Shown in pieces: positions 757-50,898 of a DNA stretch of 64,000 bases. Where the stretch lies: positions 20,896-84,895 of the forward strand of contig JAFTPQ010000008.1 in assembly GCA_017463205.1 (NCBI GenBank), written 5' to 3'. Below the pieces are notes generated by a model. It did no database searches and was not told where the DNA came from. It was given only the letters and a program-made list of their open reading frames with translations. A program made the translations under genes and the position numbers. Source of the DNA: Clostridia bacterium. GTDB lineage: Bacteria; Bacillota; Clostridia; Christensenellales; Borkfalkiaceae. Position 1 is the first letter of the stretch. Each line of letters opens with the position of its first letter.

Positions 757-775
757 GGGGCAGGTATGCGTTGAA
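757..775 (+). repeat. Dispersed 19-nt motif GGGGCAGGTATGCGTTGAA, 19/19
   Basis: Exact copy in the KH-rimM intergenic region, followed by tgt and then A6. Confidence 0.95.
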
Positions 776-828
776 TGTAAAAAATGCAAAAAAACCGTTA
801 GCTTTTTTTGCGCAAAAAGGAGTGCTTT

Positions 829-1329
829 ATGGACCGTTTACTGATAGGGGAAGTGTTAAAACCCCAAGGGATCAGAGGCGAATTGAAGGTGAAAACGTTT
901 ACGGACACGCCCGAAGACGTAAAAGCGTTTGGGACGGTGTACATCGACGACAAGGCGTATAAAATTTTGTCTTTTCGCGTCGGGCCGGACGGCGCGGCGT
1001 ATATGGGTTTGCGCGGGATCCCCGACAGAAACGCAGCCGAATTGTTCCGTGGGAAAAAGTTGGAAGGCGATCGTGAAGACGCGCCGCCTTTGGAAGAAGG
1101 TCGCTATTATATCGTCGATATCATCGGGCTTTCCTGCGAAACGGAGGAAGGCGAATTTTTGGGTAGAGTGAAAGATATCAAAAATCTTTCATCCGACGTA
1201 TATACCATTGAAAAAGACGGCAAAGATATTCTTTTTCCCGTTGTGAAAAACGTGATCAAGCATATCGATTTGGAACAGGGCAAAGTCATTTTAGACAAAG
1301 CGGTGTTCGACGAAATTGCCGTGATGTAA
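829..1329 (+). CDS. rimM: 16S rRNA processing protein RimM
   Basis: N-terminus LLIGEVLKPQGIRGELKV and a PRC-barrel C-terminus. AAAGGAG RBS before ATG 829. Follows rpsP and the KH gene. Confidence 0.9.
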   Translation: MDRLLIGEVLKPQGIRGELKVKTFTDTPEDVKAFGTVYIDDKAYKILSFRVGPDGAAYMGLRGIPDRNAAELFRGKKLEGDREDAPPLEEGRYYIVDIIGLSCETEEGEFLGRVKDIKNLSSDVYTIEKDGKDILFPVVKNVIKHIDLEQGKVILDKAVFDEIAVM

Positions 1330-1343
1330 AAGCAAAAGAAAAA

Positions 1344-1376
1344 CTCTTCCGTAGATGGCTTCGGAAGAGCTTTTTG
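1344..1376. terminator. Bidirectional intrinsic terminator (rimM / thiT convergent)
   Basis: Stem CTCTTCCG/CGGAAGAG flanked by an A run on the 5' side and a T run on the 3' side. Confidence 0.65.
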
Positions 1377-1402
1377 CCTTTTTTCGGCAGAAGAAAAACA
1401 TT

Positions 1403-2101
1403 TTATTTTTTACGTTTCATAAGAGCGGTCAATTTATGCAAGACGCCCGATTTTGTCAAAAATATCAATACCATGGTTGCGATCACCGCATCTAACGGGA
1501 TATAAACGCATTGATAAATGAAGGAATAAAGCAGAGCGTTTTGCATTGCCCAGCCGGGGAGCGGATCCCATATCGCGCCTTCCAAAAAGAAGATGATACC
1601 CGACAGCCAATGGAAGAAAAATCTTGCGCAAAACACGCAGACGCAACCCAAAACGATCGGTTTCAGCGTTGGCTGTTCCTGTTGTTTTTTGCCGAAAAAT
1701 CCCATCAGCGCAACGGACGCAAACGGCAACAAATAATCGAGGATAAACGTTGCGGGCGTGAGGATATACGGCGATTCGATAAAGTTCAACAAACCGTGTA
1801 TCAAGCCCACGATCAATCCGTCGGCAACGCCGTATACGTACGCGTAGATCAAGATGGGTACAAAAGACGCAACGGTGATCGATCCGCCAAATTGCACAAT
1901 TTTAAATTTAAAAATTGCAAGGGCAAACGACATCGCAACGCAAATGCCCGCAAACGCCAGCTTGCGCGCGTCAAATTTTTGTTTGTTCAACAAACCGAGC
2001 AAGGCGATTGCGCCAAGTAGCACCGCCACTGCGCCGACGGAGATCCATTTGACGACGTTGGTGGCTTGTTCGCTGACTTCCAGCAGGGAATAAAGATACA
2101 T
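1403..2101 (-). CDS. thiT: Energy-coupling-factor transporter S component, thiamine type (ThiT-like)
   Basis: A 232-aa protein with about 6 predicted TM segments. AAGGAGG RBS. A TPP riboswitch lies upstream on the same strand. Confidence 0.75.
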   Translation of the reverse strand: MYLYSLLEVSEQATNVVKWISVGAVAVLLGAIALLGLLNKQKFDARKLAFAGICVAMSFALAIFKFKIVQFGGSITVASFVPILIYAYVYGVADGLIVGLIHGLLNFIESPYILTPATFILDYLLPFASVALMGFFGKKQQEQPTLKPIVLGCVCVFCARFFFHWLSGIIFFLEGAIWDPLPGWAMQNALLYSFIYQCVYIPLDAVIATMVLIFLTKSGVLHKLTALMKRKK

Positions 2102-2269
2102 AAAAACACCTCCTTGTGTACCGTCGCACGCGTTTTGAAAAAATAACGCCTAACGAAAGGATCAGCCTTTGTAAATCAAGACTTCCCGCGTAGGCGCAAA
2201 GATTTTTCTTATCGCAGACGGCAAACAAAAAGGAAAAAATTTTTTTGTCTGTCAAAAGGATATAAAACG

Positions 2270-2352
2270 GTTATCGATCTCTCGCTCAGGGATTACCCTG
2301 CCGATTCAAATGGTATAATCTCAGCCTTTTTCAAGGCACCCACGACGGATAC
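2270..2352 (-). promoter_or_regulatory. TPP (THI-box) riboswitch aptamer
   Basis: Minus strand reads GGGUGCC..GGCUGAGAUUAUACC..UGAAUCGGCAGGGUAAUCCCUGAGCG. This has the CUGAGA box and a GGGUAAUCCC hairpin typical of RF00059, and it sits upstream of thiT. Confidence 0.7.
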
Positions 2353-2438: not shown

Positions 2439-3023
2439 ATGCGTTACGATTTTTACGCCTATATGGACCGAATGAAATATATCAAGCGTTGGCAGTTGAT
2501 GCGTTCGATGCGAGATGAAAATATTATGGAACATTCGCATCAAGTGACGATGCTGACGCACGCATTGGTCGCCATTCACAATCAGCTTTTCGAGGAAAAA
2601 GCGGACGTTACGAAAGCGGTGTTGTACGCGGTTTATCACGAGGTGAGCGAAGTGATGACGGGGGATCTTCCCACGCCTATCAAATATTATAACCGCCAGA
2701 TCCGCGGCGCGTATAAAGAGTTGGAACACAGCGCGTGCGAAAAGATCGTCCAAACGTTGCCTGAAGAACTGCGAGGGGAGCTTGAACCGTATATTTTAGC
2801 GGAGGAAGATTGCATCGAATACGATTTGGTGAAAGCGGCGGATCGTTTGGCGGCATATATCAAATGCTTGGAAGAACTTCGTTGCGGCAACACCGAGTTT
2901 GCCAAAGCGAAAAAGAGCATCGAAAAAGATTTGCAGAATAGAAAAATGCCGGAGATCGACTATTTTTTCACGCATTTTATCAAATCGCTTTCCTTGTCGT
3001 TGGACGATTTGGAAGGTTTGTAA
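2439..3023 (+). CDS. yfbR: HD-domain 5'-deoxynucleotidase (YfbR family)
   Basis: Colinear with E. coli YfbR: RWQLMR..ENIMEHSHQV..YHEVSEVMTGDLPTPIKYYN..KAADRLAAYIKCLEEL. Confidence 0.8.
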   Translation: MRYDFYAYMDRMKYIKRWQLMRSMRDENIMEHSHQVTMLTHALVAIHNQLFEEKADVTKAVLYAVYHEVSEVMTGDLPTPIKYYNRQIRGAYKELEHSACEKIVQTLPEELRGELEPYILAEEDCIEYDLVKAADRLAAYIKCLEELRCGNTEFAKAKKSIEKDLQNRKMPEIDYFFTHFIKSLSLSLDDLEGL

Positions 3024-3231
3024 ATTTACGTTGCTGAAAAGGCAAAAAGCGCAAAAAAAACATAAAAAATAAAATTTATCACACAATTTTCAAAAAACGA
3101 TAAACGAATCAACGAAAACGTTGTGTATAATAGTAACGGCAATAGGAAATAATTGCGTATAGAAGCATCCGAAAAACGCTGTAACGTTGATGACGTTGAT
3201 CAAAAAAAATCGCGAAGGAGTTTTCAAGGAT

Positions 3232-5621: not shown

Positions 5622-6719
5622 ATGAAAAAACGAAAAGGGAACTCCCCGCAAGACAAGGCGGAATTTGTGTTTCAACGCATACCTGCCCCCTTGCTTTTGT
5701 GGTATAGGCAGCACAAACGGGATCTGCCGTGGCGAAAAAATCCCACGCCCTATCGCGTTTGGGTGTCGGAGATTATGTTGCAACAAACGCGTGTGGAGGC
5801 GGTGAAAGAATATTATCGCCGTTTTATGGAAGTCTTGCCGACGGTGGCGGATCTTGCGGCGTGTGAAGAAGAAAAACTGCTGAAATTGTGGGAAGGTTTG
5901 GGGTATTACAGCCGTGTACGCAATATGCAAAAAGCGGCGAAGATCATCGTGTCGGAATATGGCGGCGAACTTCCCAAAGATTTGTCGACGTTAAAAACTT
6001 TGCCGGGGATCGGCAGTTATACGGCGGGCGCAATCGCTTCGATCGCATACGGAATGCCTGTGGCGGCAGTGGACGGAAACGTGTTTCGGGTTGCGTCCCG
6101 TTTGACGGAAGATCCCACGCCTATCTCTGCGCCTGCCTACCGAACGTATTTGGAAAACGCCTTAACGGCGGTGTATCCGTCGGCGGGAAAGGATTGCGCC
6201 GATTTTACGCAGAGTTTGTTTGAATTGGGCGCAACGGTTTGCAAACCGCAAACGCCCGATTGTGATAGTTGTCCTGTAAAAGCGTTGTGTCACGCGTATC
6301 AAAGCGGTACGCAAAGCCAATATCCCGTGATGCCTGAAAAAAAAGCAAAACGGGTGGAAAACGTTTGTGTTTTTTTGATCGAAACGCCGCAAGGTTTTTG
6401 TATTCGACGTCGGGAAGAAGGCGTTTTAAAGGGAATGAACGAATTTCCTTCCCGTGTTTTAGAGGAAGGGGAAACGGCGGAAAATATTTTAAACGAATGG
6501 GGCATGTACGAGTTTACGCAAGTAAAACGTAAAAATTATACGCATATTTTCACCCATATCCGTTGGAATATGACGTGTGTTTGGATACGGACGGAAAGCG
6601 CGCCGTTTGATGCGTACACGTATGATGAAATTTTGGAAACGGTGTCCTTGCCCACGGCGTTTAAGCAGTGTATGGACATTTTAAAAGAGAGTGTGCAACA
6701 GTTGCGGTTGGAAATATAA
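5622..6719 (+). CDS. mutY: A/G-specific adenine DNA glycosylase MutY
   Basis: WYRQHKRDLPWR, VSEIMLQQTRV, the HhH-GPD motif LPGIGSYTAGAIASIA, a Cys cluster CKPQTPDCDSCPVKALC, and a NUDIX-like C-terminus. Confidence 0.9.
   Translation: MKKRKGNSPQDKAEFVFQRIPAPLLLWYRQHKRDLPWRKNPTPYRVWVSEIMLQQTRVEAVKEYYRRFMEVLPTVADLAACEEEKLLKLWEGLGYYSRVRNMQKAAKIIVSEYGGELPKDLSTLKTLPGIGSYTAGAIASIAYGMPVAAVDGNVFRVASRLTEDPTPISAPAYRTYLENALTAVYPSAGKDCADFTQSLFELGATVCKPQTPDCDSCPVKALCHAYQSGTQSQYPVMPEKKAKRVENVCVFLIETPQGFCIRRREEGVLKGMNEFPSRVLEEGETAENILNEWGMYEFTQVKRKNYTHIFTHIRWNMTCVWIRTESAPFDAYTYDEILETVSLPTAFKQCMDILKESVQQLRLEI
5671..5689 (-). repeat. Dispersed 19-nt motif, 19/19, reverse orientation, inside mutY
   Basis: The + strand reads TTCAACGCATACCTGCCCC, the exact reverse complement. 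It encodes FQRIPAP in the variable MutY N-terminus. Confidence 0.95.
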
Positions 6720-7923: not shown

Positions 7924-8286
7924 GGGGCATTGTCCCTTAACCCCTTATTGGGTATTGATAAGGTTACAAGTTCCGATAACGAAAGATAGAAAGTCAAGGT
8001 CAAGTGGAACGCTTGCGGAACGTTGGTTGACTGCTGCGCAGTAGTGGCGCAAGCAAAGCTTGCTTAACTTGGGCTTAACTTCGCAAGGGCTTCCGCCCCT
8101 GCACCCTGACAAGAAACTGAGTTTCTTGACTTCCTGTTGGGGGGTGATACGGTTACAAGCTTCAGTAACGAAAGATAGAAAAGACATGATCCAACGGAAC
8201 GTTGGCGGAACGCTTGCGGAACGTCGGTTGGAGAAGACGGAATACGGTTTTGTTGTGCAAGAAAAAATTTTACAAAACTTTAACAA
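7924..8286 (+). repeat. Modular intergenic repeat, copy 1 (cassette order P-U then B-U)
   Basis: Long near-identical blocks shared with 12147-12452: 7924-8026 matches 12338-12441, 8031-8146 matches 12147-12260, and 8265-8286 matches 12431-12452. Confidence 0.85.
8196..8223 (+). promoter_or_regulatory. Three GGAACG direct repeats at exact 11-bp phasing; candidate OmpR-family binding site
   Basis: GGAACG at 8196, 8207 and 8218. Pairs with the same phasing occur at 8006/8017 and 12420/12431. Confidence 0.35.
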
Positions 8287-8336: not shown

Positions 8337-8355
8337 GGGGCAGGTATGCGTTGAA
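8337..8355 (+). repeat. Dispersed 19-nt motif, 19/19
   Basis: Exact copy ending 29 nt before the response-regulator start codon, followed by atat and AAAA. Confidence 0.95.
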
Positions 8356-8384: not shown

Positions 8385-9055
8385 ATGGCAAAAATTTTGG
8401 TTGTAGAAGACGATCGGGCGATCAATGGATTGATCTGTTTACGGCTTCGCGCCGAAGGACACGAGGTGACGGCTTGTTACGATGGCGAGGAGGCTCTTTC
8501 CGCGATGGAAACGGAGAGCTTTTCTATGATTATCAGCGATATTATGATGCCGAAAACGGACGGGTTTCAACTTGCCGAAAACGTGCGTTTGACGGATAAA
8601 AAAATTCCCATTTATTTATGACGGCAAAGGACGACAAGCCTTCTAAATTATACGCCTATCAATTGGGAGTAGACGATTACGTAGTGAAACCCTTCGATAT
8701 GGACGTGTTTATTTTAAAGGTGTCGGCGATGTTGCGCCGCGCGGGGATCGAGGCAAGCAAGCAACTGACGGTGGGAAATCTGTCGATGAACGCGGAAGAA
8801 CATACGGCGTATTTAAACGGGGAAGAATTATCCCTCACCGTGCGGGAATTCGATTTGCTGTTTAAATTGTTGTCCTATCCGAAAAAGACGTTTACGCGCT
8901 CGGCACTGATGGATGAATTTTGGGATTACGATTCGTCGGCAACGTCGCGGACGGTGGACGTATATATGGCGAAATTGCGCGAAAAGACGTCCGATTGCGA
9001 CGGGTTCGATATCGTCACGGTACACGGGCTTGGGTATAAGGCGGTGTTGAAATGA
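8385..9055 (+). pseudogene. OmpR-family response regulator interrupted by a 1-nt frameshift near 8611-8620
   Basis: ORF 8385-8621 is the receiver domain up to KKIPIYL*. ORF 8618-9055 continues with MTAKDD..., then the rest of the receiver and the winged-helix domain, in another frame. One extra T would restore IPIYFMTAKDD. Confidence 0.85.
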
Positions 9056-12007: not shown

Positions 12008-12146
12008 GTTGCGACCTAGGGGCTTGGAACGTGTTTTTAGGGTGAAGTTTTTTATGTTGAGTGAAGTTCGCTTTGCGAGTGAAGTTTTGTCTTGCGACAA
12101 AGTTGTAGCTGGGATTTATAACGGGCAACGACAAGCGTTGCCATAA

Positions 12147-12452
12147 CTGCTTCGCAGTAGTGGCGCAACCTTTCGGTTGCTTAATGGGGGCTTTACTTTG
12201 CAAGGGCTTCCGCCCCTGCACCCCGACAAGAAACTGAGTTTCTTGACTTCCTGTTGGGGAACGACAAGGTTATTAATATCAATAAAGAAAGATAGAAAGA
12301 CAAGATCCAACGGAACGTTGGCTGCCCACACCCGTAAGGGACAATGCCCCTTAACCCCTTATTGGGTGTCGATACGGTTACAAGTTCCGATAACGAAAGA
12401 TAGAAAGTCAAGGTCAAGCGGAACGCTTGCGGAACGTTGGCGGTTTTACAAA
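12147..12452 (+). repeat. Modular intergenic repeat, copy 2 (cassette order B-U then P-U)
   Basis: See copy 1. Same modules in the same orientation, but with the cassette order permuted. Confidence 0.85.
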
Positions 12453-21982: not shown

Positions 21983-24319
21983 ATGGATTTAATTATCGTA
22001 GAGTCGCCTTCCAAGGCGAAAACCATCACCAAATATCTCAAGGGCAAATATCGGGTAGACGCTTCGGCGGGGCATATCCGCGATCTGCCCGTGCATACGC
22101 TTGGCGTGGACGTGAAAAACAATTTCGAGCCGAAGTACGTCAATTCCGAAGGGAAAGAAGACGTGATCAGACGTTTGGTAGACGCGACGAAAAAAGCCGA
22201 TCGCGTTTACCTCGCAACCGACCCCGACCGTGAAGGAGAAGCGATCGCGTGGCATTTGCAGACGGTGTTGGGGCTGGATACGGAAGGGGAAAACCGTATC
22301 GAATTTAACGAAGTTTCCCAACGCGCGATCGAAGCGGCGTTAAAAACGCCCCGTCAAATCAATTACAGCCTTGTAGACGCGCAACAGGCACGCCGCGTGT
22401 TAGACCGTTTGGTGGGGTATAAACTCTCGACGCTGTGAAATCATAAAATCGAAGATAAAAACGGCAACGGCAAGCGCACGCTTTCGGGCGGACGGGTGCA
22501 ATCGGTGGCGCTTCGCTTGGTGGTGGAGCGAGAACGGGAAATCACCTCGTTCGTGCCGCAAGAATATTGGAATTTGACGGCGGAATTGCAAGATCTGCCC
22601 AAACAATACGCGCCGTTTAAAGCATTGCTTGAAAAGAAGGGATCGAAAAAATACAAGCCGTCGTCTGCGGAAGAAACCGCGCAGGTGTTGGCGGCGTTGG
22701 AACAGGGGAAATTCGTTGTTTCCAAAGTGAAAAAAGCGATTGCAAAATCGCACGCGCCCGCGCCGTTCACCACAAGTTCGTTGCAACAAGACGCTTCGAC
22801 GAAGCTCGGATTCACCGCGCCGGAAACGATGACGCTTGCGCAACATTTGTACGAAGGTATCGAAACGGAAAACGGCGATCATATCGCCTTTATCACCTAT
22901 ATGCGTACCGACTCCGTTCGCGTATCGAAAGAAGCGCAGGAAAGGGCGTTAGAGCGTATCCGCGAAGTGTACGGTGCGGAATACGCCCCTGAAAAGCCCA
23001 ATTATTATGCGTCGAAGAAGGGTGCGCAGGACGCGCACGAAGCGATCCGTCCCAACGATCTTTCGATGACGCCCGAAAAGGCGAAAGGGTTGTTGGATAA
23101 AAAGCACTACGCTTTGTACAAATTGGTGTACGAGCGCTTCTTGGCGTCGCAAATGGCGGAAGCGAGATACAACAGTATGCAAATGGAAATCGACAACGGC
23201 GGCTACGTGTTTAAGGCGAGCGGAAAGGTGTTGCTGTTTGCAGGGTTTACGGCGGTATATCAAGACGCAAGCGCGCAGAAAAAAGAAGATGAAGACGAGA
23301 TCAGCAGTGAAAAGTTGTTGCCCGATTTAAACGAAGGGGACGCATTGGATCTGGTTTCGATGAAAAAGGAACAAAAATTCACCAAACCGCCCCTGCGGTA
23401 TACGGACGCGTCGCTGGTAAAAGCGATGGAAGAAAAGGGGATCGGCAGACCGTCTACGTATGCGACGATCATTTCCAAATTGACGCAAAAATACGTAAAA
23501 AAAGACGGAAAATATATGCTTCCCACGCCGATCGCTTACGACGTAGTGGATATGTTGGTGAAATGCTTTGTGGACGTAATGGACGTCGGGTTTACGGCAG
23601 GCATGGAAACCAAACTGGACGACATCGAAGAAGGGGACGTAGATTGGCGCAAAGTGATCGGGGATTTCTATCCCGGATTTGAAAAAAATTTGCGTCAGGC
23701 GTCGGCATACGGGGACGAATTGACGGAAACGACGTGCGGCAAGTGCGGTCATTTTATGATCCGCCGTATGGGGAAATTCGGCAAATATTTGGCTTGTTCC
23801 AACTATCCCGAATGTCACAATATTTTAAGTGAAAGCAAGGAGGAAATTTCTGCGGTGCGCTGTCCGAAATGCGGCGAAAATATGGTGGTGAAAAGTGGGA
23901 AATTCGGCAGATTTTTGGCGTGTCCCAGCTATCCCGACTGTAAATCGACGATGTCGATGCCGACGGATGAAGAACCCAAGCTGGCAGGGAAATGTCCCGA
24001 ATGCGGCGCGGCGATGACGGTGCGCAAATCGAAGAAAGGCAAAGTGTATTACAGCTGTTTGGGCTATCCCGATTGCAAATTTATGAGTTGGGACGTGCCG
24101 ACGGGGGATAAATGTCCCGAATGTCAAGGCGCTTTGGTACAAACGGCGCGCGGAAACGTGAAATGCAGCAACAAAGATTGTTCCTACCGTATCAAAACGG
24201 AAAAACCAAAAACGGACAAAGCAACGAAAAAGAGTAATCCGATCCCGATGGACGACGATTTTGCGCCGCCTCCCTTGATGGACGAACCGATGTATTTCGA
24301 TTTTAGCGACGAAGAATAA
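21983..24319 (+). pseudogene. topA: DNA topoisomerase I: one continuous frame with a single in-frame TGA at 22436-22438
   Basis: Track ORFs 21983-22438 and 22496-24319 are in the same frame (offset 513 nt). A TOPRIM N-terminus, GRVQSVALRLVVEREREI after the stop, and C-terminal zinc ribbons. The TGA aligns with the W of the conserved SPLLWKK segment. Confidence 0.9.
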
Positions 24320-24321
24320 CG

Positions 24322-25680
24322 ATGGGTATGGAAAAAGAAGTGTTGGTGATCGGCGGCGGTTTGGCGGGCAGTGAAGCGGCGTATTATCTGGCTTCGCGCG
24401 GCATCAAAACGACGTTGGTGGAAATGAAACCGAAAAAATTTACTCCCGCGCACGAAAGCGCTTGTTACGGCGAATTGGTCTGTTCCAATTCGCTGAAAAG
24501 CAACGACGCCTATGGCAATGCTTGCGGCTTGTTGAAAGAAGAAATGCGGCGGTTGGGTTCGATGATCATCGAGGCTGCGGACGCGACGAAAGTGCCTGCG
24601 GGCGCGGCTCTTGCCGTCGATCGGGAAAAATTTTCGGCGTATATTACGGAAAAATTGCAAAATTGTCCCAACCTCACCCTGCTTTCGGAGGAAGTGAAAA
24701 CTCTGCCCGAATTGGAAAAGGAAGGGGGCAGGTATGCGATCATCGCTACGGGGCCGTTGACGGCGGAGGATCTCAGCCGCGATATTTTGGAAAAAACGGG
24801 CGGCGGTTTACATTTTTACGACGCGTCTGCGCCTATCGTGTCCGCTGACAGCGTGGATATGCGTTATGCGTTCACGGGCGATCGTTATGGCAAAGGTACG
24901 GGCGATTATATCAACTGCCCGATGAACAAAGAAGAATATTATGCGTTTGTAGACGCCTTGCTTTCGGCGGAACGCACGCACTTGCACGATTTTGAAAAGG
25001 GGGAAATTTTCGAGGGGTGCATGCCGGTGGAAGTGATGGCTTCGCGCGGACGGGATACGTTGCGGTTTGGAACGTTAAAGCCCGTCGGGCTGGAATATGA
25101 AGACGGAAAACGGGCGTACGCAGTGTTACAGCTCCGCAAGGAAAACAACGAGGGAACGACGTATAATTTGGTGGGCTTTCAAACCAATTTGAAATTTCCC
25201 GAACAAAAACGAGTGTTTTCTATGATCCCTGCGTTGCAAAACGCCGAATTTTTACGCTATGGCGTGATGCATAGAAATACGTATATTCAATCGCCCGATG
25301 TTTTAAATCGCGATTTTTCGTTTAAGAATAATAGACGAATGTTTTTTGCGGGGCAGATCACGGGTGTGGAAGGGTATGTCGAAAGCGCGGCAAGCGGACT
25401 TTTGGCGGCGATCCATATAACGGACGAAATTTTAAAACGCCCCACCCATGTATTTGATGAACGCACAATGTGCGGCGCTTTGGAAACGCATATTTCCACG
25501 CCGACGAAAGATTTTCAGCCGATGAATGCCAATTTTGGGATTCTCACGCCGATGTCCGTGCGCATACGGGATAAAAAAGAACGTTATCGCGCCATGGCAG
25601 AACGTGCGTTGGCTGTCATTGACGAAATGAACGGACAAGGCGTTTTCGATCAAAGTCAAACGGCGAAGAAGGAAAAATAA
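24322..25680 (+). CDS. trmFO: Methylenetetrahydrofolate--tRNA-(uracil-5-)-methyltransferase TrmFO
   Basis: VIGGGLAGSEAAYYL FAD motif, CSNSLKS, FAGQITGVEGYVESAASG. Follows topA, as in Bacillus. Confidence 0.9.
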   Translation: MGMEKEVLVIGGGLAGSEAAYYLASRGIKTTLVEMKPKKFTPAHESACYGELVCSNSLKSNDAYGNACGLLKEEMRRLGSMIIEAADATKVPAGAALAVDREKFSAYITEKLQNCPNLTLLSEEVKTLPELEKEGGRYAIIATGPLTAEDLSRDILEKTGGGLHFYDASAPIVSADSVDMRYAFTGDRYGKGTGDYINCPMNKEEYYAFVDALLSAERTHLHDFEKGEIFEGCMPVEVMASRGRDTLRFGTLKPVGLEYEDGKRAYAVLQLRKENNEGTTYNLVGFQTNLKFPEQKRVFSMIPALQNAEFLRYGVMHRNTYIQSPDVLNRDFSFKNNRRMFFAGQITGVEGYVESAASGLLAAIHITDEILKRPTHVFDERTMCGALETHISTPTKDFQPMNANFGILTPMSVRIRDKKERYRAMAERALAVIDEMNGQGVFDQSQTAKKEK

Positions 25681-29987: not shown

Positions 29988-30029
29988 ACGTTACGAAAGG
30001 AAAAACGCCTGCCCCGCAGCAAAAGCTGT

Positions 30030-30048
30030 GGGGCAGGTATGCGTTGAA
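30030..30048 (+). repeat. Dispersed 19-nt motif, 19/19
   Basis: Exact copy 42 nt after the trxA stop. Its GGGGCAGG half is the 3' arm of the 13-bp hairpin at 30008-30037. Confidence 0.95.
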
Positions 30049-33133: not shown

Positions 33134-33152
33134 TAGGCAGGTATGCGTTGAG
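33134..33152 (+). repeat. Dispersed 19-nt motif, variant 16/19 (TAGGCAGGTATGCGTTGAG)
   Basis: Lies 17 nt after the stop at 33116, followed by at and A6. Confidence 0.8.
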
Positions 33153-33330: not shown

Positions 33331-35931
33331 ATGGATATGAGAAAGTTTACCGAAAAATCGGTGGCGGCATTACAGAAGTCGCAGGCGGTTGCGCGCGAAT
33401 ACGGCAATCAGGAAGTGAAACAAGCGCATTTGCTGTACGCTTTGGCGTCTGATCGCGACGGGTTGATCGCGCAGTTGTTGCAGGGCATGGAAAAAGACGT
33501 AACGGCAATTGAAAATGCGGCGTTGGAAAGTATTAAAAAATTGCCCAAGGTAAGCGGGGGAGAGCAATACGTTGGGCGGAGTTTGGCAGACGCATTGGAA
33601 GCGGCGGAAGCGCAGATGACGAAAATGGGAGATTTGTATTTGTCGGTAGAACATCTGTTTTTCGGTTTGACGGAAAAGGCGGACGGGGATTTGAAAGGGT
33701 TGTTCAAGCGGTTTTCTATCGAACAAAACGTGTTTATGCAAGCGTTGGCAGGGGTGCGCGGAAACCGTACGGTGCAAAGCGAAAACCCCGAAGATACTTA
33801 CGACGTATTGCATAAATACGGCACTGATTTGGTGGAAAAGGCAAGGGCGCAAAAAATCGATCCCGTCATCGGCAGAGATGAAGAGATACGAAACGTAGTG
33901 CGGATATTGTCGAGAAAGACGAAAAACAATCCTGTGTTGATCGGGGAAGCGGGCGTCGGGAAGACGGCGATCGCAGAAGGATTGGCGATTCGTATTATGC
34001 GCGGGGACGTACCCGATTCGTTAAAGGACAGAAAGGTGTTTTCGTTGGATATCGGCGCATTGATCGCGGGGGCGAAATTCCGCGGTGAATTTGAAGAACG
34101 TTTAAAAGCGGTGCTTGCCGAGGTGAAAAAGAGCGAAGGGGGCATAATTTTGTTCATTGATGAATTGCATACGATCGTCGGGGCGGGGAAAACGGACGGC
34201 GCGATGGACGCAGGTAATTTGTTAAAACCGATGTTGGCTCGCGGAGAGCTGCATTGTATCGGCGCGACGACGTTGGACGAATACCGTAAATATATCGAAA
34301 AAGATCCTGCGCTGGAACGGCGTTTTCAACCCGTGCTGGTGACAGAACCCACCGTCGAAGATACCATTTCCATTTTGCGTGGCTTGAAAGACCGCTATGA
34401 AGTGTATCACGGCGTAAAGATACAAGACAACGCGCTGATCGCGGCGGCCACGCTGTCTAACCGTTATATCACCGATCGTTTTTTGCCGGATAAAGCGATC
34501 GATTTGGTGGACGAAGCGTGCGCGATGATCAAAACGGAAATGCAATCGATGCCGTCGGAAATGGACGAGATCGCGCGGAAAATTATGCAACTTGAAATTG
34601 AGGAAAACGCCTTAAAAAAAGAAACGGACGCGTTATCGAAATCGCATTTGGAGGAAATTGAAAAAGAACTGTCCGTTCTTCGCGCGGAATATTCGGAAAT
34701 GAAAGCCAAATGGGAGAACGAGAAAAACGCCATCGGAGAATCGCAAAAATTGCGCGAGGAGTTGGAAACGGCAAACGCACAACTTGAAAAGGCGCAACGG
34801 GAATACGATTTGGAAACGGCGTCCAAATTGAAATACGGCAAAATCCCCGATCTGATCAAGCGTATTGAAGCGTGTGAAAAACAAGAAACGACGGGGGCAG
34901 GTATGCGTTCAACGGAAAATTCATTGTTGCGCGATCGGGTGACGGAAGAGGAAATTTCTCGGATCGTAGCCCGTTGGACGGGAATACCCGTTTCCAAATT
35001 GATGGAGGGCGAACGCGAAAAATTGTTGCGTTTGGACGAAACGTTGCACGCGCGCGTAATCGGGCAAGACGAAGCCGTGCAAGCGGTGGCGGACGCCATA
35101 TTACGTTCTCGCGCGGGGATCGCAGATCCCAATCGGCCGATCGGTTCGTTTCTGTTTTTAGGCCCGACGGGGGTAGGGAAAACGGAGCTTGCCAAAACGC
35201 TGGCTCGTTTGTTGTTCGACGACGAAAAAAATATGGTGCGGATCGATATGAGCGAATATATGGAAAAATATTCCGTTTCCCGTTTGATCGGCGCGCCTCC
35301 GGGATACGTTGGTTATGACGAAGGCGGACAGTTGACGGAAGCGGTGCGCAGAAAACCGTACAGCGTTGTGCTGTTCGATGAAGTGGAAAAGGCGCATCCC
35401 GACGTGTTCAACGTGCTGTTGCAGGTGTTGGACGACGGCAGGATCACCGACGGGCAGGGCAGGACGGTCGATTTTAAAAACACCGTCATCATTCTAACTT
35501 CCAATTTGGGTTCTACGACCATTTTAGAGGGAATCGAATACGATGGGAGTTTGTCGGAAGAAGCGAAAGAGGAAGTAAATCGTTTATTGAAAGCCTCTTT
35601 CCGTCCGGAATTTTTAAACCGCTTGGACGAAACGGTGTTTTTTACGCCGCTGACGAAGCCGCAAGTTCATCAAATCGTGCGGTTGTTGGCGGAAGGTTTG
35701 ATCAAGCGTTTGGAAGAAAAACAGTTGTATCTGACGTTGACGGATGCCGCGGTAGAATTGATCGTGGAAAAGGGATACGATCCTGTTTACGGGGCGCGGC
35801 CGTTAAAACGGTTTATTCAGCACAGTTTGGAAACGATGTTGGCAAAAAGCATTTTGGCGGGCAATTTTACAGCCGGCGACAGGTTGACGGTGGACGCGCG
35901 GCAGGGCGAATTGTCGGTGAAAAAAGCATAA
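33331..35931 (+). CDS. clpB: ATP-dependent chaperone ClpB
   Basis: Clp N domain, two AAA+ modules ([30 protein letters not shown]), and a middle coiled coil. Confidence 0.95.
34894..34912 (+). repeat. Dispersed 19-nt motif, 18/19 (TGA changed to TCA), in frame inside clpB
   Basis: acgGGGGCAGGTATGCGTTCAa encodes TGAGMRS in the ClpB linker before [11 protein letters not shown]. Confidence 0.9.
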
Positions 35932-36100: not shown

Positions 36101-37183
36101 ATGAAGATCATACACACGGGCGACGTGCATTTGGGTTCTACGATGAAAAATTTGCCGCCCGAAAAGGCGAAATTGCGGCAGGCGGAATTGATGGATACGT
36201 TTGCACAACTTGCCGTCTATGCAAAAAACAACGGAGTTTCCGCCGTGATCATCGCAGGGGATCTGTTTGATGAAAATAACCTGTTGCGGCGATATAAGCA
36301 AGACGTGTTCGCTGTAATAAAGGACGCCGCGCCCGTGGGATTTTTTTACGTTTCGGGCAATCATGACGACGAATTTGATTACGAAGACGAACTGCCGCCC
36401 AATTTATTTTTGTTTTCCAAAAGTCGGGGCTGGCAAAGTTACGATTTTCCCGAAAATATCACGCTGACGGGCATGGACAGTAAATTTATGCGCGCGGAAA
36501 CGCTTGCCGCATTGTCGTTGGATAAAACGCGGTTTAATATCGTGGTTTTGCACGGCGATATCGCAGGCGGTAAAACGAGTTTTGAAACAATTCCCCTCAC
36601 GGCGTTGCAAAATAAGTACGTCGATTATTTGGCGTTGGGGCATATCCATAAGCCGATGGCGGCGGCGAAACCTTTAGACGGACGGGGGATCTACCGTTAT
36701 TGCGGTTGTTTGGAAGGCAGAGGGTTTGACGAATGCGGTCAGCGGGGATTTTTCCTGTTGGATATCGAAAATGGGCGGTTGGTTCGCGAACAGTTTATTT
36801 CCATCGCCAAGCGAACGGTGGTGGAAGCGCATGCGGATATTTCCGATTGCGGCAGTTATTACGACGTGGAAAAAACGGTGGCGGCGGTATTAGGGCAGAT
36901 CCCGACGGGCAGTATCGTAAAATTGGTGCTTTGCGGGCGTTGCGTTGCGGGATTGCGCAAAGAATTATCCTTGTTGGAAATGCGTTTCGGACAGCAATTT
37001 TTTCATATTCGGGCGGAGGACGAAACGAAAACGTTTATCGATTATCGCGCCTACGAACATGATCACACCGCGCGCGGAGAATTTGTCCGCGAAGTGGGCA
37101 GGCGTGAAATGTCGGAAGAATTGCGCGCCGAAATTTTAGACGTGGGGTTAAAAGCTCTGGCAGGGGAGGAGATCGATTTATGA
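36101..37183 (+). CDS. SbcD/Mre11-like metallophosphoesterase (YhaO-like DNA repair exonuclease)
   Basis: MKIIHTGDVHLG, GDLFD, SGNHD, GHIH motifs. Overlaps the downstream ATPase gene (ATGA). Confidence 0.8.
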   Translation: MKIIHTGDVHLGSTMKNLPPEKAKLRQAELMDTFAQLAVYAKNNGVSAVIIAGDLFDENNLLRRYKQDVFAVIKDAAPVGFFYVSGNHDDEFDYEDELPPNLFLFSKSRGWQSYDFPENITLTGMDSKFMRAETLAALSLDKTRFNIVVLHGDIAGGKTSFETIPLTALQNKYVDYLALGHIHKPMAAAKPLDGRGIYRYCGCLEGRGFDECGQRGFFLLDIENGRLVREQFISIAKRTVVEAHADISDCGSYYDVEKTVAAVLGQIPTGSIVKLVLCGRCVAGLRKELSLLEMRFGQQFFHIRAEDETKTFIDYRAYEHDHTARGEFVREVGRREMSEELRAEILDVGLKALAGEEIDL

Positions 37184-39423
37184 AATTGTTATCCTGTTAT
37201 ATTGCCGGGTTTGGGAAATTTGTCAAACGGCAAATTCCATTTGACGGCAACCCTGTCGTGATCAAAGAGGACAATGGCTGGGGAAAAACGACGCTTGCCG
37301 ATTTCATTAAATGTATGTTATACGGCATGGAAAACAGCAGAAGCCGCGCTTTGGAAACAAACGAACGAAAAAAATACGAACCGTGGCAAGGCGGCGTATT
37401 CGGCGGTTCGCTTACGTTTTTATACGCAGGACGGAAATACCGCATCGAGCGGACGTTTGGCAAAACGGCGAGTATGGATACGGCGCGGCTGTTTGACGAA
37501 AACGAGATGCAATCGTACGCGTTTGGCGATAAAGCGGAGCATTTGGGCGAGGCGTTGTTTGGCGTCGATCGCGACAGTTATCAGCGCAACGTGTATGTTC
37601 CGCAAGGGGAGATCCCGACGGGGAATTTGCCCGACGATATGAAAAACCGCTTGCTTGCGTTGCTTGGCGGCAACGGGCAGGGCGGCGGTTCGGAAGTGGC
37701 GTTCGAGCGGCTGGAAACGGCAGAACGGGCGTTGCGCGCAAAGCGAAAACCCGCCAAAGGGAAGTTGGACGCGATCGACGAGCGGTTGCAAGAAATTTCA
37801 CGGGAAAAAGCAAATTGCGAACAGTGTCTTGCACAAGCGCGTTCGTTGCGCGCGGATATGCAACGCAAAGAGGAAGAAATCGGCTTTTACAATCAACGTT
37901 TGGAAGGTTTGTCGGCGGCAATCGAAAAGCTCAGCCGTCAAAACGAATGGCAGGCTCGGCAAGACGCCTATCGTCAAGCGCAAACGCAACTGCGAGGGAA
38001 CAACGCCACGCTTGGCGAGTTGCAGGCTTTCTTTGGCGACGTTGCGCCTGCTTCCGTCAACGTGGACGGCTTGCAAACGGCGGTTGGAGAATTTTATTCC
38101 TTGAAAGGCGCGCTGGCGGATACCGAACGGGAATTATCGCGCGCGGAAGACGTTTTGCGTGAAAAAAAGAACTTGGAAACGCAATTTTCCGCCTGTCAAA
38201 AAGCGAAGAAAACGTACGATCTGTTTATGGCAGGAAAAGGGGAAAGGACAGGGGCAGGTATGCGTTCACCGTCTGAAAAGCGAGCAAAAGTCGGCGGCAT
38301 AAAAGGCGTGTTTTGGTTTGTTTTTTTGCTGATCGCGGTTTTGGGCGGCGGACTTGTGAAAACGCAACCCGTTTTGGGCGGTATCGCATTGACGATCGGG
38401 GCAGTCGGCATATTGACGATGACGGTTATGTTGCTTCGCGGAAGAAAACGCAATGCCAAACGGTCGAATAAAGAAGAAACTGCGACGGAAGAAGCTTTAA
38501 AAGGTCTTGCGGAAACAGAAAAAGAATTGGCGGAGATCAGCCGTCGTTTGTCGGCGTTCCCTTCCGACGCCGAACAGATTTGTCAACGCTTGACCGCGCA
38601 AAAAACGCAACAAAAGCAGCGTTTGGACAGCGTGGAAAAGGGGATCGCCCGTTTTTTACAAAAATTTGCATTTCGGGAAATATACGATTATCGGGTGGCA
38701 TTGTCCACGTTAAAAGAAAATATTGCCTCTTACGCGCGGCTCACCCACTCCGTAGCGGAGCTGCAAACGCAGGTAAACGCTTGGGCGGACGGCTTGCAGG
38801 GGCAGGACGTTGCGCCGCAAGAGAGCGCTTTGGGGGATATTTCGGCACTGAAAAACGAAAAGGCGCAGATGGAGCGCGCAAAAGAAAGTTCGGTTGCCGA
38901 ACACGCTCGGTTGGCGACGAAGGCAGAACAGTTGGAAGAAGCGGCGGACACGTCGGGTTTGGACGGGGAGGCGGACGCGCTAAACCACGAAAAAGAACGT
39001 TTGGAAAGGCGATTGTACGCAATCAAGGCGGCGAAAGAAATATTGCTTCGCGCGGAAGAAAATATAGCGTCTCGGTATTTAGAACCGGTGGGGTTGCGTT
39101 GTCGGGCATATTTGAAAATGTTGCAAGGCGAAACGGGCGCAACGTTACGTTTTTCCGCCGACGGCGCGCCGTTCATTGAAGAAAACGGAGGGACGCATGA
39201 AGTGGATTATTACAGCGTCGGCTCGAAAGAATTGATCGGTTTTTGCACGCGTATCGCATTGGCGGAAACGATGTTTACACGTGAAACGCCTGTATTGATT
39301 TTAGACGATCCGTTTGTGAATTTGGACGATGAAAAAACGGAAAAAGCCAAACGGCTTGTCAAAGAATTGTCGAAAAAATATCAAATCGTATATTTTACTT
39401 GCAAAAACGAACGGCGCTTGTGA
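37180..39423 (+). CDS. SMC/SbcC-like AAA ATPase (YhaN-like) with an internal TM hairpin
   Basis: N-terminal Walker A DNGWGKTT, long coiled coils, and a C-terminal LILDDPFVNLDD Walker B. Hydrophobic segment at 38305-38436. Confidence 0.75.
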   Translation: MKLLSCYIAGFGKFVKRQIPFDGNPVVIKEDNGWGKTTLADFIKCMLYGMENSRSRALETNERKKYEPWQGGVFGGSLTFLYAGRKYRIERTFGKTASMDTARLFDENEMQSYAFGDKAEHLGEALFGVDRDSYQRNVYVPQGEIPTGNLPDDMKNRLLALLGGNGQGGGSEVAFERLETAERALRAKRKPAKGKLDAIDERLQEISREKANCEQCLAQARSLRADMQRKEEEIGFYNQRLEGLSAAIEKLSRQNEWQARQDAYRQAQTQLRGNNATLGELQAFFGDVAPASVNVDGLQTAVGEFYSLKGALADTERELSRAEDVLREKKNLETQFSACQKAKKTYDLFMAGKGERTGAGMRSPSEKRAKVGGIKGVFWFVFLLIAVLGGGLVKTQPVLGGIALTIGAVGILTMTVMLLRGRKRNAKRSNKEETATEEALKGLAETEKELAEISRRLSAFPSDAEQICQRLTAQKTQQKQRLDSVEKGIARFLQKFAFREIYDYRVALSTLKENIASYARLTHSVAELQTQVNAWADGLQGQDVAPQESALGDISALKNEKAQMERAKESSVAEHARLATKAEQLEEAADTSGLDGEADALNHEKERLERRLYAIKAAKEILLRAEENIASRYLEPVGLRCRAYLKMLQGETGATLRFSADGAPFIEENGGTHEVDYYSVGSKELIGFCTRIALAETMFTRETPVLILDDPFVNLDDEKTEKAKRLVKELSKKYQIVYFTCKNERRL
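38251..38269 (+). repeat. Dispersed 19-nt motif, 17/19 (TGA changed to TCA), in frame inside the yhaN-like gene
   Basis: acaGGGGCAGGTATGCGTTCAc again encodes TGAGMRS. It matches the clpB copy at 20 of 21 nt. Confidence 0.9.
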
Positions 39424-43605: not shown

Positions 43606-43624
43606 TACCCAGGTATGCGTTGAA
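43606..43624 (+). repeat. Dispersed 19-nt motif, variant 15/19 (TACCCAGGTATGCGTTGAA)
   Basis: The 3' 15 nt are exact. Followed by taag and AAAA, and then the bidirectional terminator. Confidence 0.75.
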
Positions 43625-43629
43625 TAAGA

Positions 43630-43670
43630 AAACAGGCTGTTGAACGATCGTTTAACAGCCTGTTTCTTAT
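43630..43670. terminator. Bidirectional intrinsic terminator (17-bp stem)
   Basis: AAACAGGCTGTTGAACG-at-CGTTTAACAGCCTGTTT, lying between convergent operons. Confidence 0.75.
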
Positions 43671-43677
43671 TGCAAAA

Positions 43678-47182: not shown

Positions 47183-48409
<1,227 letters not shown>

Positions 48410-48426
48410 TAAAAAATGACAAAAAA

Positions 48427-48457
48427 CGGCTCTCTTTAAAAAGAGGGCTGTTTTTTT
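48427..48457 (+). terminator. tgt intrinsic terminator
   Basis: CGGCTCTCTT/AAGAGGGCTG stem (two G-U pairs) followed by T7. Confidence 0.6.
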
Positions 48458-48537
48458 AAAATCTTCCTGCAAACGCTTGACAACGGCTGAAATATATGAT
48501 ATCATTTTGATATCAATACAAAAACACGGAGAGCAGT

Positions 48538-49266
48538 ATGTTAAAAATAGAAAATTTGACGAAGCGATATGGGGAGAAAAGCGCGGTAGATAACGTTACG
48601 TTGCATATTCGCGCAGGGGAAATTTACGGATTTATCGGGCATAACGGTGCAGGAAAAACCACGACGTTGAAGGCGTGTTGCGGCATTTTGCAATTTGAAG
48701 AAGGGGAAATTTTTATCGACGGCGCGTCTGTGCGAAAAGAACCGCTTGTTTGCAAACAAAAAATTGCGTACATTCCCGATAATCCCGATTTGTACGCCTT
48801 TATGACGGGGATACAGTATTTGAATTTCGTGGCGGACGTATTTAAAGTGCCGTCGGCGGAGCGTTCGGCACGCATTAAGAAATATGCCGACGCCTTTGAA
48901 TTGACGTTTGCTTTGGCGCAACCCATTTCCACCTATTCTCACGGAATGAAACAAAAATTAGCGGTAATTTCCGCTTGGATACACGCGCCGAAGCTTATTT
49001 TAATGGACGAACCGTTTGTGGGGCTCGATCCCAAGGCGGCGCACACGTTGAAAGAAATGATGCGGGAAGTTTGCGACAACGGCGGCGCAATTTTCTTTTC
49101 CACGCACGTATTGGAAGTGGCGGAAAAATTATGCGATAAAGTGGCGATCATCAAAGACGGAAAATTGATAAAAGAGGGTACCATGGACGAGGTGAAAGGG
49201 GATTCCACCCTCGAAAACGTCTTTTTGGAATTGGTGGAAACGCCCTCCGACGTCGCAAAGGAGTGA
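48538..49266 (+). CDS. ABC transporter ATP-binding protein
   Basis: GHNGAGKTT, YSHGMKQKLAVISA, LMDEPFVGLDP. Confidence 0.85.
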   Translation: MLKIENLTKRYGEKSAVDNVTLHIRAGEIYGFIGHNGAGKTTTLKACCGILQFEEGEIFIDGASVRKEPLVCKQKIAYIPDNPDLYAFMTGIQYLNFVADVFKVPSAERSARIKKYADAFELTFALAQPISTYSHGMKQKLAVISAWIHAPKLILMDEPFVGLDPKAAHTLKEMMREVCDNGGAIFFSTHVLEVAEKLCDKVAIIKDGKLIKEGTMDEVKGDSTLENVFLELVETPSDVAKE

Positions 49267-50867
49267 GTATGCTGAAAACGTTGTTGAAAAAAGAACTGTT
49301 GGCGATTTTGGCGTTTTTCACGATAGGAAAAAACGGAAAACGCCGTTCCGCAGGTGTGATGGCAGGGTTTGCGCTGTTGATGTTGTATGCGTTCGGCGCA
49401 ATGGTTTTTATGTTTTGGGAAATGAGCAAAATGCTGTGCGCGCCGTTGGTCACAACGGGGCAAGCGTGGATATATTTTTCCGTAATGGGGTTGATGGCAA
49501 CGTCGTTGGGGGTGATCGGCGGCATTTTTATGGCAAAAAGCAAATTATACGAGGCGAAAGATAACGATTTGCTGTTGTCGATGCCGATTTCCGCGTGGAA
49601 ATTGTTGGCGGTGCGTACAATCGGCTTGTATGCGTTCACCTTTGTATTTGAAGGATTGGTGTTTTTGCCTGCCGTTGTGCAATATTTTACGGTAGTCGGC
49701 GCGCAGTGGCAAGCCGTTATCGGATGCGTCGTTGTCACTCTATTGATGCCGTTTTTGGCATTGGCGGTTTGTTGTCTGCTCGGTTTCGTTATGGCTTGGA
49801 TGCTGGGGAAATTGCCTTATAAAAATTTGTTTGCGATCCTTGGATTTTTAGCGTTTATGATCGTCTATTTTCTGTTATACAGCAAAATATACGACGCTTT
49901 AAATTACGTAATTATCAATGGGGAAGCGGTGGGCGCAATGATGCAAACGGCGCTGTTCCCCTTCGCGCAACTTGGCAAGGCGGCGATTGGAAACGGCGTT
50001 TCGCTCCTTTGGTTTTTGTTGGTGTTTGTGGGAGCGTTCGCCGTGGTGTACGGCTTGTTGTCCGTCACGTATTTGCGTATCGTGACGGCGAAAAAAGGTG
50101 AACGTTACGCCAAATATAAAGCAACGGAGCACAAGGTGTCTTCTCCTCGAAAGACTTTGTTGAAACGTGAGTTTTTGCGTTTGTTCAAAAGCCCCGGCTA
50201 TTTTTTGAACGCGTCTATGGGTACGTTTATGACTCTGTTGGTCGTCATTATGGCAGTGATACAGGGGGATGTGTTTGGAATGACGGCGGAAACGTTGCAG
50301 ACGAGCGGTTTCATCAAAATCGCGTCGATGATCCTTCCGCTTGCGCTGTGTTTTTTGGCATCTTCCAATACGTTGACGGCAGTATCCGTGTCCTTGGAAG
50401 GGGAAACGTTGTGGCAGTTACGTTCGTTGCCCGTAAAAACACAAGACGTGTTAAATGCAAAACTTTTGTTGCATTTTATCATGACGGCGGTTCCCGTCGC
50501 TTTGTGCGGTTGTGGAATGGGAATCGTGTTGAAACTTGCTTGGTATCACGTTGTATTTGCGGTATTGACGGGAATTTTGGCGTCGGCTTTTTTTGCGGAA
50601 ATGGGCTTGATGATCAATTTAAAATTCCCCAATTTGCATTGGACAAACGAAATGGTTGCCGTGAAACAAAGTCTGTCTGCCGTTTTCGCGATGTTTGGCG
50701 GCTGGGGCGTATCGTTATTGCCGCTCGGCGGATATTTCCTCTTTGGAAAATATATGCCCGCGTGGGGGTACGTCGCCCTTTGGCTGGGGATATTCGCATT
50801 GGCAACGACGGTGTTGTGGCTGTGCATAAAAAAATGGGGAACTTTGTTGTTTGAAAGTTTGTCATAA
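49263..50867 (+). CDS. Polytopic membrane protein, putative ABC exporter permease partner
   Basis: A 534-aa protein with many TM segments. Overlaps the ATPase gene stop. Confidence 0.6.
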   Translation: MSMLKTLLKKELLAILAFFTIGKNGKRRSAGVMAGFALLMLYAFGAMVFMFWEMSKMLCAPLVTTGQAWIYFSVMGLMATSLGVIGGIFMAKSKLYEAKDNDLLLSMPISAWKLLAVRTIGLYAFTFVFEGLVFLPAVVQYFTVVGAQWQAVIGCVVVTLLMPFLALAVCCLLGFVMAWMLGKLPYKNLFAILGFLAFMIVYFLLYSKIYDALNYVIINGEAVGAMMQTALFPFAQLGKAAIGNGVSLLWFLLVFVGAFAVVYGLLSVTYLRIVTAKKGERYAKYKATEHKVSSPRKTLLKREFLRLFKSPGYFLNASMGTFMTLLVVIMAVIQGDVFGMTAETLQTSGFIKIASMILPLALCFLASSNTLTAVSVSLEGETLWQLRSLPVKTQDVLNAKLLLHFIMTAVPVALCGCGMGIVLKLAWYHVVFAVLTGILASAFFAEMGLMINLKFPNLHWTNEMVAVKQSLSAVFAMFGGWGVSLLPLGGYFLFGKYMPAWGYVALWLGIFALATTVLWLCIKKWGTLLFESLS

Positions 50868-50879
50868 TGAAAAACGAGC

Positions 50880-50898
50880 GGGGCAGGTATGCGTTGAA
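50880..50898 (+). repeat. Dispersed 19-nt motif, 19/19
   Basis: Begins 12 nt after the stop at 50867. GGCAGG (50882-50887) pairs with CCTGCC (50907-50912), followed by a T-rich run, so it looks like a terminator. Confidence 0.95.

Follow-up and report, generated by a model that had tools for sequence, protein, structure and literature searches.

The word in the 64-kb window

The element described here is a 19-nt word, GGGGCAGGTATGCGTTGAA (9 G and 2 C), that recurs in a 64-kb stretch of contig JAFTPQ010000008.1 from a Clostridia bacterium (assembly GCA_017463205.1). This whole stretch is referred to as the window. It lies in a metagenome contig of 142 kb in ENA. Its G+C content is 47%, its GC skew is +0.15 to +0.2 nearly throughout, and most of its genes are on the + strand; skew and gene strand together indicate that the window is one replication arm, read along the leading strand. 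A mismatch-tolerant scan returned five exact copies, four on the + strand (757, 8337, 30030 and 50880) and one on the − strand (5671). Five copies with one to three mismatches (34894, 38251, 33134, 24725 and 62115) and two with four mismatches each (43606 and 61717) were also found, all of them on the + strand. Markov models predict 5e-7 to 2e-6 exact copies per 64 kb, and 0.04 copies with three or fewer mismatches are expected by chance in the window. In the window, every one of the most repeated 10- and 12-mers derives from GGGGCAGGTATGCGTTGAA. An earlier reading of this DNA from its letters, without database searches (the sequence-only reading), had listed five exact and four near copies and had judged their recurrence to be beyond chance. 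All nine positions hold, with 24725, 62115 and 61717 added by the rescan, and the excess is borne out by five exact copies against about 1e-6 expected and by shuffled windows, none of which (0 of 100) reached the observed count.

The copies lie both between and within genes. The exact copy at 757..775 (+) is intergenic, between the terminator that follows a KH-domain gene and the start of rimM (808/829), and that at 5671..5689 (−) is antisense in the part of mutY for the N-terminus, where it encodes FQRIPAP. The leader of a response-regulator gene (start 8385) contains the copy at 8337..8355 (+), which closely follows, on the 3' side, a repeated element of ~300 nt at 7924-8230. On the + strand, too, are the exact copies at 30030-30048, within a hairpin region (30008..30048) 42 nt past a stop codon, and at 50880-50898, within a segment (50880..50920) 12 nt past the stop of an ABC permease gene, where it forms a terminator arm. 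Among the mismatched copies, that at 34894..34912 (one mismatch) encodes TGAGMRST in the variable M-domain linker of clpB. Others are within an SbcC/YhaN-like ATPase gene (38251..38269, two mismatches; gene 37180-39423), trmFO (24725..24743, three mismatches; 24322-25680) and a radical-SAM gene (62115..62133, three mismatches; 61834-63351). The intergenic copy upstream of clpB (33134..33152, three mismatches) has no significant structure. Of the two four-mismatch copies, one (43606..43624) comes after a pair of ABC exporter genes and lies immediately 5' of a strong bidirectional terminator (43621-43675) that is unrelated to it, and the other is a degenerate copy, GGGGCAGGTATTTGTTCAC, in coding sequence (61717..61735). 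The distances given by the sequence-only reading, 12, 17 and 42 nt from stop codons and 29 nt to the regulator start, were recomputed and are correct. Note that the frame ending at 33116, 17 nt before the 33134 copy, is an unverified 93-codon open reading frame (ORF).

Both hairpins that the sequence-only reading had drawn around copies, at 30008-30037 and 50882-50912, are real. In the first, the initial 10 nt of the 30030 copy serve as the 3' arm of a 14-bp stem whose upstream side is a partial inverted arm, CCTGCCCC...; the 81-nt stretch containing it has a predicted folding energy of −38.9 kcal/mol (z = −6.1). The second (−21.3 kcal/mol, z = −4.0) is an intrinsic terminator in which GGCAGGT of the 50880 copy is the 5' arm, followed by its partner ACCTGCC and then a T-run. 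Strong hairpins thus contain two of the six intergenic copies in the window, and the other four show no structure beyond that of shuffled controls. The window has no match in Rfam or in a tRNA scan.

Chance, segmental duplication and an assembly or vector artefact can be ruled out as sources of the copies. In addition to the shuffles, the 50-nt flanks differ among window copies, with no relationship seen, which excludes segmental duplication; copies fit the reading frames of conserved genes in assemblies that come from many separate studies; and the same copies recur where the strain was assembled from a second, independent sample (99.96-99.98% identical). When 14 kb beyond the ends of the window is included, the resulting 78 kb contain 6 exact copies, 11 with two or fewer mismatches and 15 with three or fewer, of which 14 are on the + strand.

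Distribution, anatomy and placement in the clade

One genome per species in GTDB was scanned for exact GGGGCAGGTATGCGTTGAA, and at least 115 chunks of 8 kb were returned, from at least ~50 species-level metagenome-assembled genomes (MAGs). Of the matches listed, all but one (a Candidatus Flemingiibacterium MAG) belong to Candidatus Scatosoma or to "Clostridia bacterium" MAGs, sampled from the guts of humans, ruminants and other hosts. The signature is specific to Candidatus Scatosoma and its close relatives among uncultured gut and rumen Clostridia, a clade that encodes sporulation proteins. As a negative control we used a metagenome scan with ClpB, which had given only distant relatives (≤69% identity): 985 kb of DNA around clpB from the 80 nearest (54-69% ClpB identity) held no copy with three or fewer mismatches. 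Nor was an alternative "dialect" of the word found at these distant loci, where the repeated 13-mers are Walker-A coding repeats and CRISPR-like arrays. Two of them (L159 and L179) have 13-mer arrays of 5-6 copies that resemble CRISPR or tandem repeats. Only 1 in 2.9 million viral contigs carries GGGGCAGGTATGCGTTGAA, and the word was not found in the literature searched.

The anatomy of the signature was derived from 121 exact copies and 79 non-exact ones. A weaker consensus extends the exact copies on their 5' side (A at −8 to −6 in 60-80%, G at −4, A at −3 in 68%, and G at −1), in coding and intergenic copies alike, and on the 3' side they are followed by a weak CGCAT, then T-rich and then C-rich sequence. 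Core and 5' extension make up a ~27-nt asymmetric DNA-level signature, AAA-N-G-A-N-G-GGGGCAGGTATGCGTTGAA. All 19 positions of the core are constrained; among the non-exact copies the tolerant positions are 19, 15, 17, 11, 13 and 1, and the most constrained are GGGCAGGT plus positions 12, 14, 16 and 18. Almost all GGGGCAGGT 9-mers in clade DNA are part of a recognizable copy of the word. The sequence-only reading had also reported that a run of A follows the motif and had included an AT tract in the candidate signal. In the window the run is indeed present after eight of nine copies (17% background), a significant excess. Across the clade it follows 21% of 90 independent sites, which is the background frequency, and no downstream AT flank is conserved; the A-tract is local to the window and was rejected as a signal component. 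T-runs are enriched after the same 90 sites (40%).

For placement relative to genes, 123 exact sites (from the window and 115 loci) were reduced to 92 independent sites by merging orthologous sites. Fifty of these are intergenic, 36 are inside ORFs and 6 overlap gene ends, in DNA that is ~89% ORF. Pfam domains support 26 of the 30 host ORFs tested, and in such hosts the coding copies are 16 sense and 10-11 antisense, the ratio predicted if placement is independent of transcription. Hosts include AddA, AddB, MutY, TatD, DnaX, an Mrr-type nuclease, ABC transporters, glycosidases and sporulation proteins, with the most widely conserved coding sites in AddA, MutY, AddB and TatD. The coding hosts look enriched for genome maintenance (AddA, AddB, MutY, TatD, DnaX, DUF4130 and Mrr, at L053, L077, window 5671, L062, L054, L008 and L012).

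Intergenic copies favor the ends of genes. They are found more often in convergent than in divergent regions (13 vs 4), at a median distance of 35 nt to a facing stop codon and 82 nt to a facing start. They cluster 7-60 nt past stop codons, and in co-directional spacers the sense orientation prevails 18:7. Neither target-site duplications nor conserved flanks were found at copies of GGGGCAGGTATGCGTTGAA, and a comparison of 381 flanking proteins turned up no recurrent neighboring family, transposase-like or mobilizing.

Of the 50 intergenic sites, 14 (28%) are followed within 60 nt by a complementary partner of 6 nt or more, vs 2 (4%) for a shuffled arm. In several species GGGGCAGGTATGCGTTGAA overlaps its own reverse complement, giving GGGGCAGGTATGCG-TTGAA/TTCAA-CGCATACCTGCCCC, a 33-nt palindrome that is perfect in several of them and can form a 14-15-bp stem (−29.6 kcal/mol). 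Conservation in this palindrome covers the left arm and loop but not the right arm. Four species also carry the word in the variable peripheral stem of a cobalamin riboswitch; in these cases (L010 5897-6115, L025, L047 and L105) the GGCAGGT of the motif faces ACCTGCC of the B12 box.

The orientation of the word follows GC skew, a relationship that the sequence-only reading had marked for testing. Its G-rich strand is on the locally G-rich strand at 75 of the 92 independent sites (75:17, 82%), regardless of whether the host gene is co-directional, and copies that share a contig share orientation. With the base composition of the window, however, chance matches to GGGGCAGGTATGCGTTGAA favor the + strand by a factor of 8-25, and a bias of 2-3:1 is already present among near-matches that have 7-9 mismatches. 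Composition thus predicts the bias of a word so rich in G, and no polar function is needed to account for it; the strand bias was rejected as proof of polarity.

A strand switch lies ~9-10 kb beyond the right end of the window (L204 17336-20255), where mnmG (gidA) and dnaA are on the opposite strand, converging on the + genes of the window, and where GC skew turns negative. This geometry beside dnaA is terminus-like rather than origin-like, and three motif copies are present in the 4 kb before it.

Orthologous sites are 17-19/19 identical overall, within flanks that are ~70-75% identical or unalignable. Five species share the mutY site at 19/19 although their flanks are only 70-75% identical, with unalignable sequence upstream and variable third codon positions downstream. 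Note that these five loci had been chosen by exact match; unbiased relatives were then fetched via MutY homologues (72-78% identity). In the five unbiased 21-kb loci so obtained, the mutY and rimM-upstream sites are exact, differently mismatched (singly or doubly) or lost, and copies with two or fewer mismatches number 12 per 100 kb, just 2 of them exact. The frequency of copies at this level of mismatch is about one per 7-9 kb across the window, its extensions and these relatives. Orthologues of the 757 site have three different single mismatches (L197 5036, L199 5018 and L201 5006) and an exact copy in L065. No copy is found at the counterpart of 8337 in L199 and L202, and the 50880 site is also present in L100, which lacks the two ABC genes. 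The FQRIPAP peptide is kept in 80 of 120 MutY homologues, the others differing at 1-4 residues (one entry is truncated). At these sites decay is balanced by a force that restores the word or keeps it in place.

The origin of coding copies is illustrated by an ABC exporter. Three species have the word, within RFYDVD(G/R)GQVCVE(G/N), and one has the equal-length sequence RFYDVNGGAILVEN (GGAILVE), which differs at ~9 of 19 nt between near-identical flanks. Copies therefore arise by substitution, not insertion. The paralogous partner subunit gained the word at the same structural position. Both subunits carry the motif (GGQVCVEG / GGQVCVDG) after the Walker A strand at L033 (5942 and 7730) and L102 (3777 and 5517). 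In clpB the reading frame used would turn an exact word into a TGA stop, and a G17C change removes the in-frame TGA. In a search with a 200-aa ClpB fragment most hits were fragmentary proteins, and the sole close relative to cover this site (P0122) reads TTGAGTRS at the same place.

Possible functions of the word

The reading that we rank first, at a probability of about 0.4, is that GGGGCAGGTATGCGTTGAA is an uptake or self-recognition sequence resembling the DNA uptake sequence (DUS) of Neisseriaceae or the uptake signal sequence (USS) of Pasteurellaceae, co-opted into terminators. Part of the ground for this rank is that biased transmission would explain the retention of 19 nt, for which selection on each of roughly 250 sites would be too weak. 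A clade-specific word, constraint that is independent of transcription, origin by substitution, enrichment after genes, terminator pairs and the spectrum of mismatches together make up the signature of an uptake sequence. To our knowledge, it is only through uptake sequences that natural transformation in bacteria comes to favor DNA from the cell's own kind.

Under the uptake reading, a DNA receptor of the transformation machinery would prefer fragments carrying the word, and word-bearing alleles would be imported and recombined more often, a molecular drive. Copies would accumulate where they are tolerated: past stops, in leaders and, whichever their orientation, within protein segments that are variable or compatible. 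A 14-bp stem with a TTGAA/TTCAA loop is formed by inverted pairs, which would have been co-opted as intrinsic terminators. Competence, preferential uptake and the receptor are parts of this scheme that we infer.

Several properties are shared with the DUS, a 12-mer (AT-GCCGTCTGAA) bound by the minor pilin ComP. Both are short, asymmetric, over-represented clade-wide words, present in coding and non-coding DNA and enriched after genes; both have inverted pairs that act as terminators, conserved orthologous sites, semi-conserved flanking positions and genome-maintenance hosts. Davidsen and coworkers in 2004 (Davidsen et al. 2004) reportedly found DUS biased towards genome-maintenance genes. That both words end in TGAA is taken to be a coincidence. 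Like the USS, which has a AAGTGCGGT core plus AT-rich flanks, the word combines a core with a weaker flanking consensus, a mix of perfect and singly mismatched copies, coding copies in peptide-tolerant frames or segments, and inverted pairs in terminators. Up to 37% of terminators in Neisseriaceae and 22% in Pasteurellaceae carry uptake sequences (PMC13020248).

A number of observations weigh against uptake. The word is 19-27 nt long, compared with 9-12 for DUS and USS as a group (10-12 for DUS), and is ~8 times sparser, with about one copy per 8 kb where the DUS has about one per kb. It differs from the USS in length, density and phylum, and in the lack of a conserved downstream AT-tract flank. 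The USS occurs about equally often in its two orientations, whereas GGGGCAGGTATGCGTTGAA is 82% co-oriented with GC skew; composition explains this bias only if sites arise from chance near-matches. The ABC exporter comparison suggests that ~9 changes were fixed in one patch, and it is hard to picture how a stepwise drive would build a 19-mer from a 10/19 match. We know of no sequence-specific uptake in Gram-positive bacteria, and the carriers of this word belong to a Gram-positive, spore-forming lineage of Clostridia. A 2026 survey places uptake sequences only in Neisseriaceae and Pasteurellaceae, two diderm families (PMC13020248), and our own literature search for uptake sequences in Firmicutes or Clostridia turned up only cases from the same two.

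The genes required for uptake also went undetected. Regular-expression and tblastn searches found no comG, comE or type IV pilus signatures in ~1 Mb of clade DNA, nor pilin, type IV pilus ATPase, ComEA or ComEC signatures in the same ~1 Mb; this DNA amounts to ~0.5 genome-equivalent spread over many genomes and is underpowered for gene absence. No ComP-like receptor was found in it, and uptake is here a prediction. The sequence-only reading had proposed an uptake-like signal and had pointed to comM and dprA, both of which are within the window. That proposal fits best of the three made there: it gains from the clade-wide distribution, the tolerant coding segments occupied in both orientations, the enrichment in intergenic DNA and at 3' ends, the terminators and the balance between mutation and constraint at sites. 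In the ~1 Mb searched, no com or pilus genes beyond comM and dprA were seen.

Should the uptake reading be correct, the word could tentatively be counted as the first sequence-specific uptake signal in a Gram-positive (monoderm) lineage and by far the longest uptake word (19-27 bp), read by a new DNA receptor; the literature searched contained no description of GGGGCAGGTATGCGTTGAA or of any uptake-like sequence in Bacillota. The DUS-like phenomenon would then extend to Gram-positives, in abundant uncultured gut Clostridia, and natural competence would be predicted for the clade. The word, added to transforming DNA, would offer a handle for genetic manipulation, and would serve as a sequence tag for binning MAGs and spotting foreign DNA. 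A receptor that reads 19 bp would be a concrete target for a search. If uptake is not involved, the word would represent a new kind of genome-wide, conversion-driven 19-nt signature without known machinery. Whatever the function, a 19-nt word kept intact in genes across tens of species demands a mechanism that has not been described.

We consider it rather unlikely that GGGGCAGGTATGCGTTGAA is a polar or architectural signal, that is, a set of replication-oriented binding sites for a clade-specific DNA-binding or DNA-translocating protein, like the FtsK-orienting polar sequences (KOPS), SpoIIIE recognition sequences (SRS), Chi or the sites of nucleoid proteins. The orientation data (75 of 92 sites with GC skew, 14 of 15 copies in the same genome on one strand, contig-mates co-oriented, and all of this independent of gene direction) are those expected of such a signal, and the spacing of ~8 kb resembles the densities of KOPS/SRS and Chi. 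These motifs are likewise G-rich, leading-strand-biased, indifferent to transcription and spaced by kilobases, and the most constrained part of the word, GGGCAGGT, is one base off GGGNAGGG. Known polar motifs, however, are 5-8 nt long and are not conserved as longer words, and we know of nothing polar that reads 19-27 nt. They never form inverted pairs, whereas ~1/3 of intergenic sites here have such pairs, including perfect palindromes, which would send contradictory signals. The strand bias itself, at 8-25:1, is given by composition alone, and in the absence of drive, selection acting on one site among roughly 250 would lack the strength to keep it at 19/19. The KOPS-like hypothesis of the sequence-only reading thus fits in orientation and spacing, and fits poorly in word length and inverted pairs.

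Still less probable is an element like the repetitive extragenic palindromic (REP) sequences, their paired form (REPIN) or miniature inverted-repeat transposable elements (MITEs). On this reading a dedicated enzyme acting on single-stranded DNA, for instance of the HUH or REP-associated tyrosine transposase (RAYT) type, would spread the 33-nt palindrome GGGGCAGGTATGCG-TTGAA-CGCATACCTGCCCC as a unit, and single 19-mers would be decayed half-sites. Perfect and partial palindromes do exist, and weak remnants of a right arm (CGCAT...CC) are seen downstream even of single copies. With REP sequences and bacterial interspersed mosaic elements (BIMEs), the word shares a density of about one per 8 kb, imperfect palindromes, placement on the 3' side of genes and a long history of vertical inheritance in a clade; density and location resemble those of E. 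coli REPs, and a bias towards the lagging-strand template is typical of single-stranded DNA transposases. Two window copies coincide with breakpoints in gene content between species. REPs, however, are strictly extragenic and need both arms, and here ~40% of independent sites are inside genes and single arms dominate. Coding copies are equal-length substitutions, and conservation of the left arm and loop without the right arm is the opposite of what a hairpin-recognizing enzyme would need. The lack of target-site duplications and conserved flanks, and the lack of a transposase-like or RAYT-like gene among recurrent neighbors in the 381 flanking proteins, also count against mobility.

An RNA-level role is very improbable: a terminator arm, a 3' untranslated region (UTR) element or a decoy ribosome site in which GGGGG resembles a Shine-Dalgarno sequence, separated by a 5-nt spacer from the mini-ORF ATG CGT TGA. 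The placement of intergenic copies 7-60 nt past stops, 18:7 sense in co-directional spacers, would suit such a role, as would the strong hairpins at two of the six intergenic window copies, one of them a clear terminator; the geometry of Shine-Dalgarno sequence, spacer and ATG can be read in the sequence, and the A-rich 5' extension is present. Against this, coding copies are antisense as often as chance predicts (16:10-11), ~2/3 of intergenic copies have no partner arm and four of the six window copies are unstructured relative to shuffles. There is no Rfam match in the window, and neither a stem nor a Shine-Dalgarno sequence would need all 19 nt to be conserved. The suggestion in the sequence-only reading of a mobile, REP-like or 3'-UTR RNA element is weakened by the origin of copies by substitution, by orientation that is independent of transcription and by the flank and neighbor results.

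Two further candidates were rejected: a promoter with TTGAA as the −35 element, as there is no consistent −10 element and copies lie in coding DNA, and a TnpB/guide-RNA target with TTCAA as the transposon-adjacent motif, the putative positions of which are among the least constrained.

Other features of the locus

A second repeat family occurs at 7924-8230 and 12146-12443 as two-unit elements of ~100-190 nt that are 85-96% identical between the two places. The family brackets a two-component-system cassette and has no Rfam match; relatives have an LDcluster4 gene at this location. Separately, the 13-mer GAATACGATTTGG is found four times on the + strand (2817, 34801, 40876 and 54077), in coding regions, where 0.2 copies are expected.

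A sharp breakpoint was found in ffh, 1.3 kb upstream of the window start, when two assemblies of this strain were compared (L203 ~3000-3100 and L205 ~7790). The two are 100% identical for tens of kb downstream of it and ~75-85% identical upstream, and there is no motif copy at the junction. Either homologous recombination between lineages or a chimeric metagenome assembly would produce this pattern.

Two genes in the window are interrupted. The response-regulator gene (8385-9055) is frameshifted near 8617; the near-identical strain L205 has an intact version of 223 aa, and the frameshift is probably an assembly indel. The topA gene is split by an in-frame TGA at 22436-22438 that aligns with a conserved Trp of "...SPLLWKKI...". 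Since TGA is otherwise a stop here, this codon is either a nonsense mutation or a MAG consensus error; the relative L201 has an intact TopA of 789 aa.

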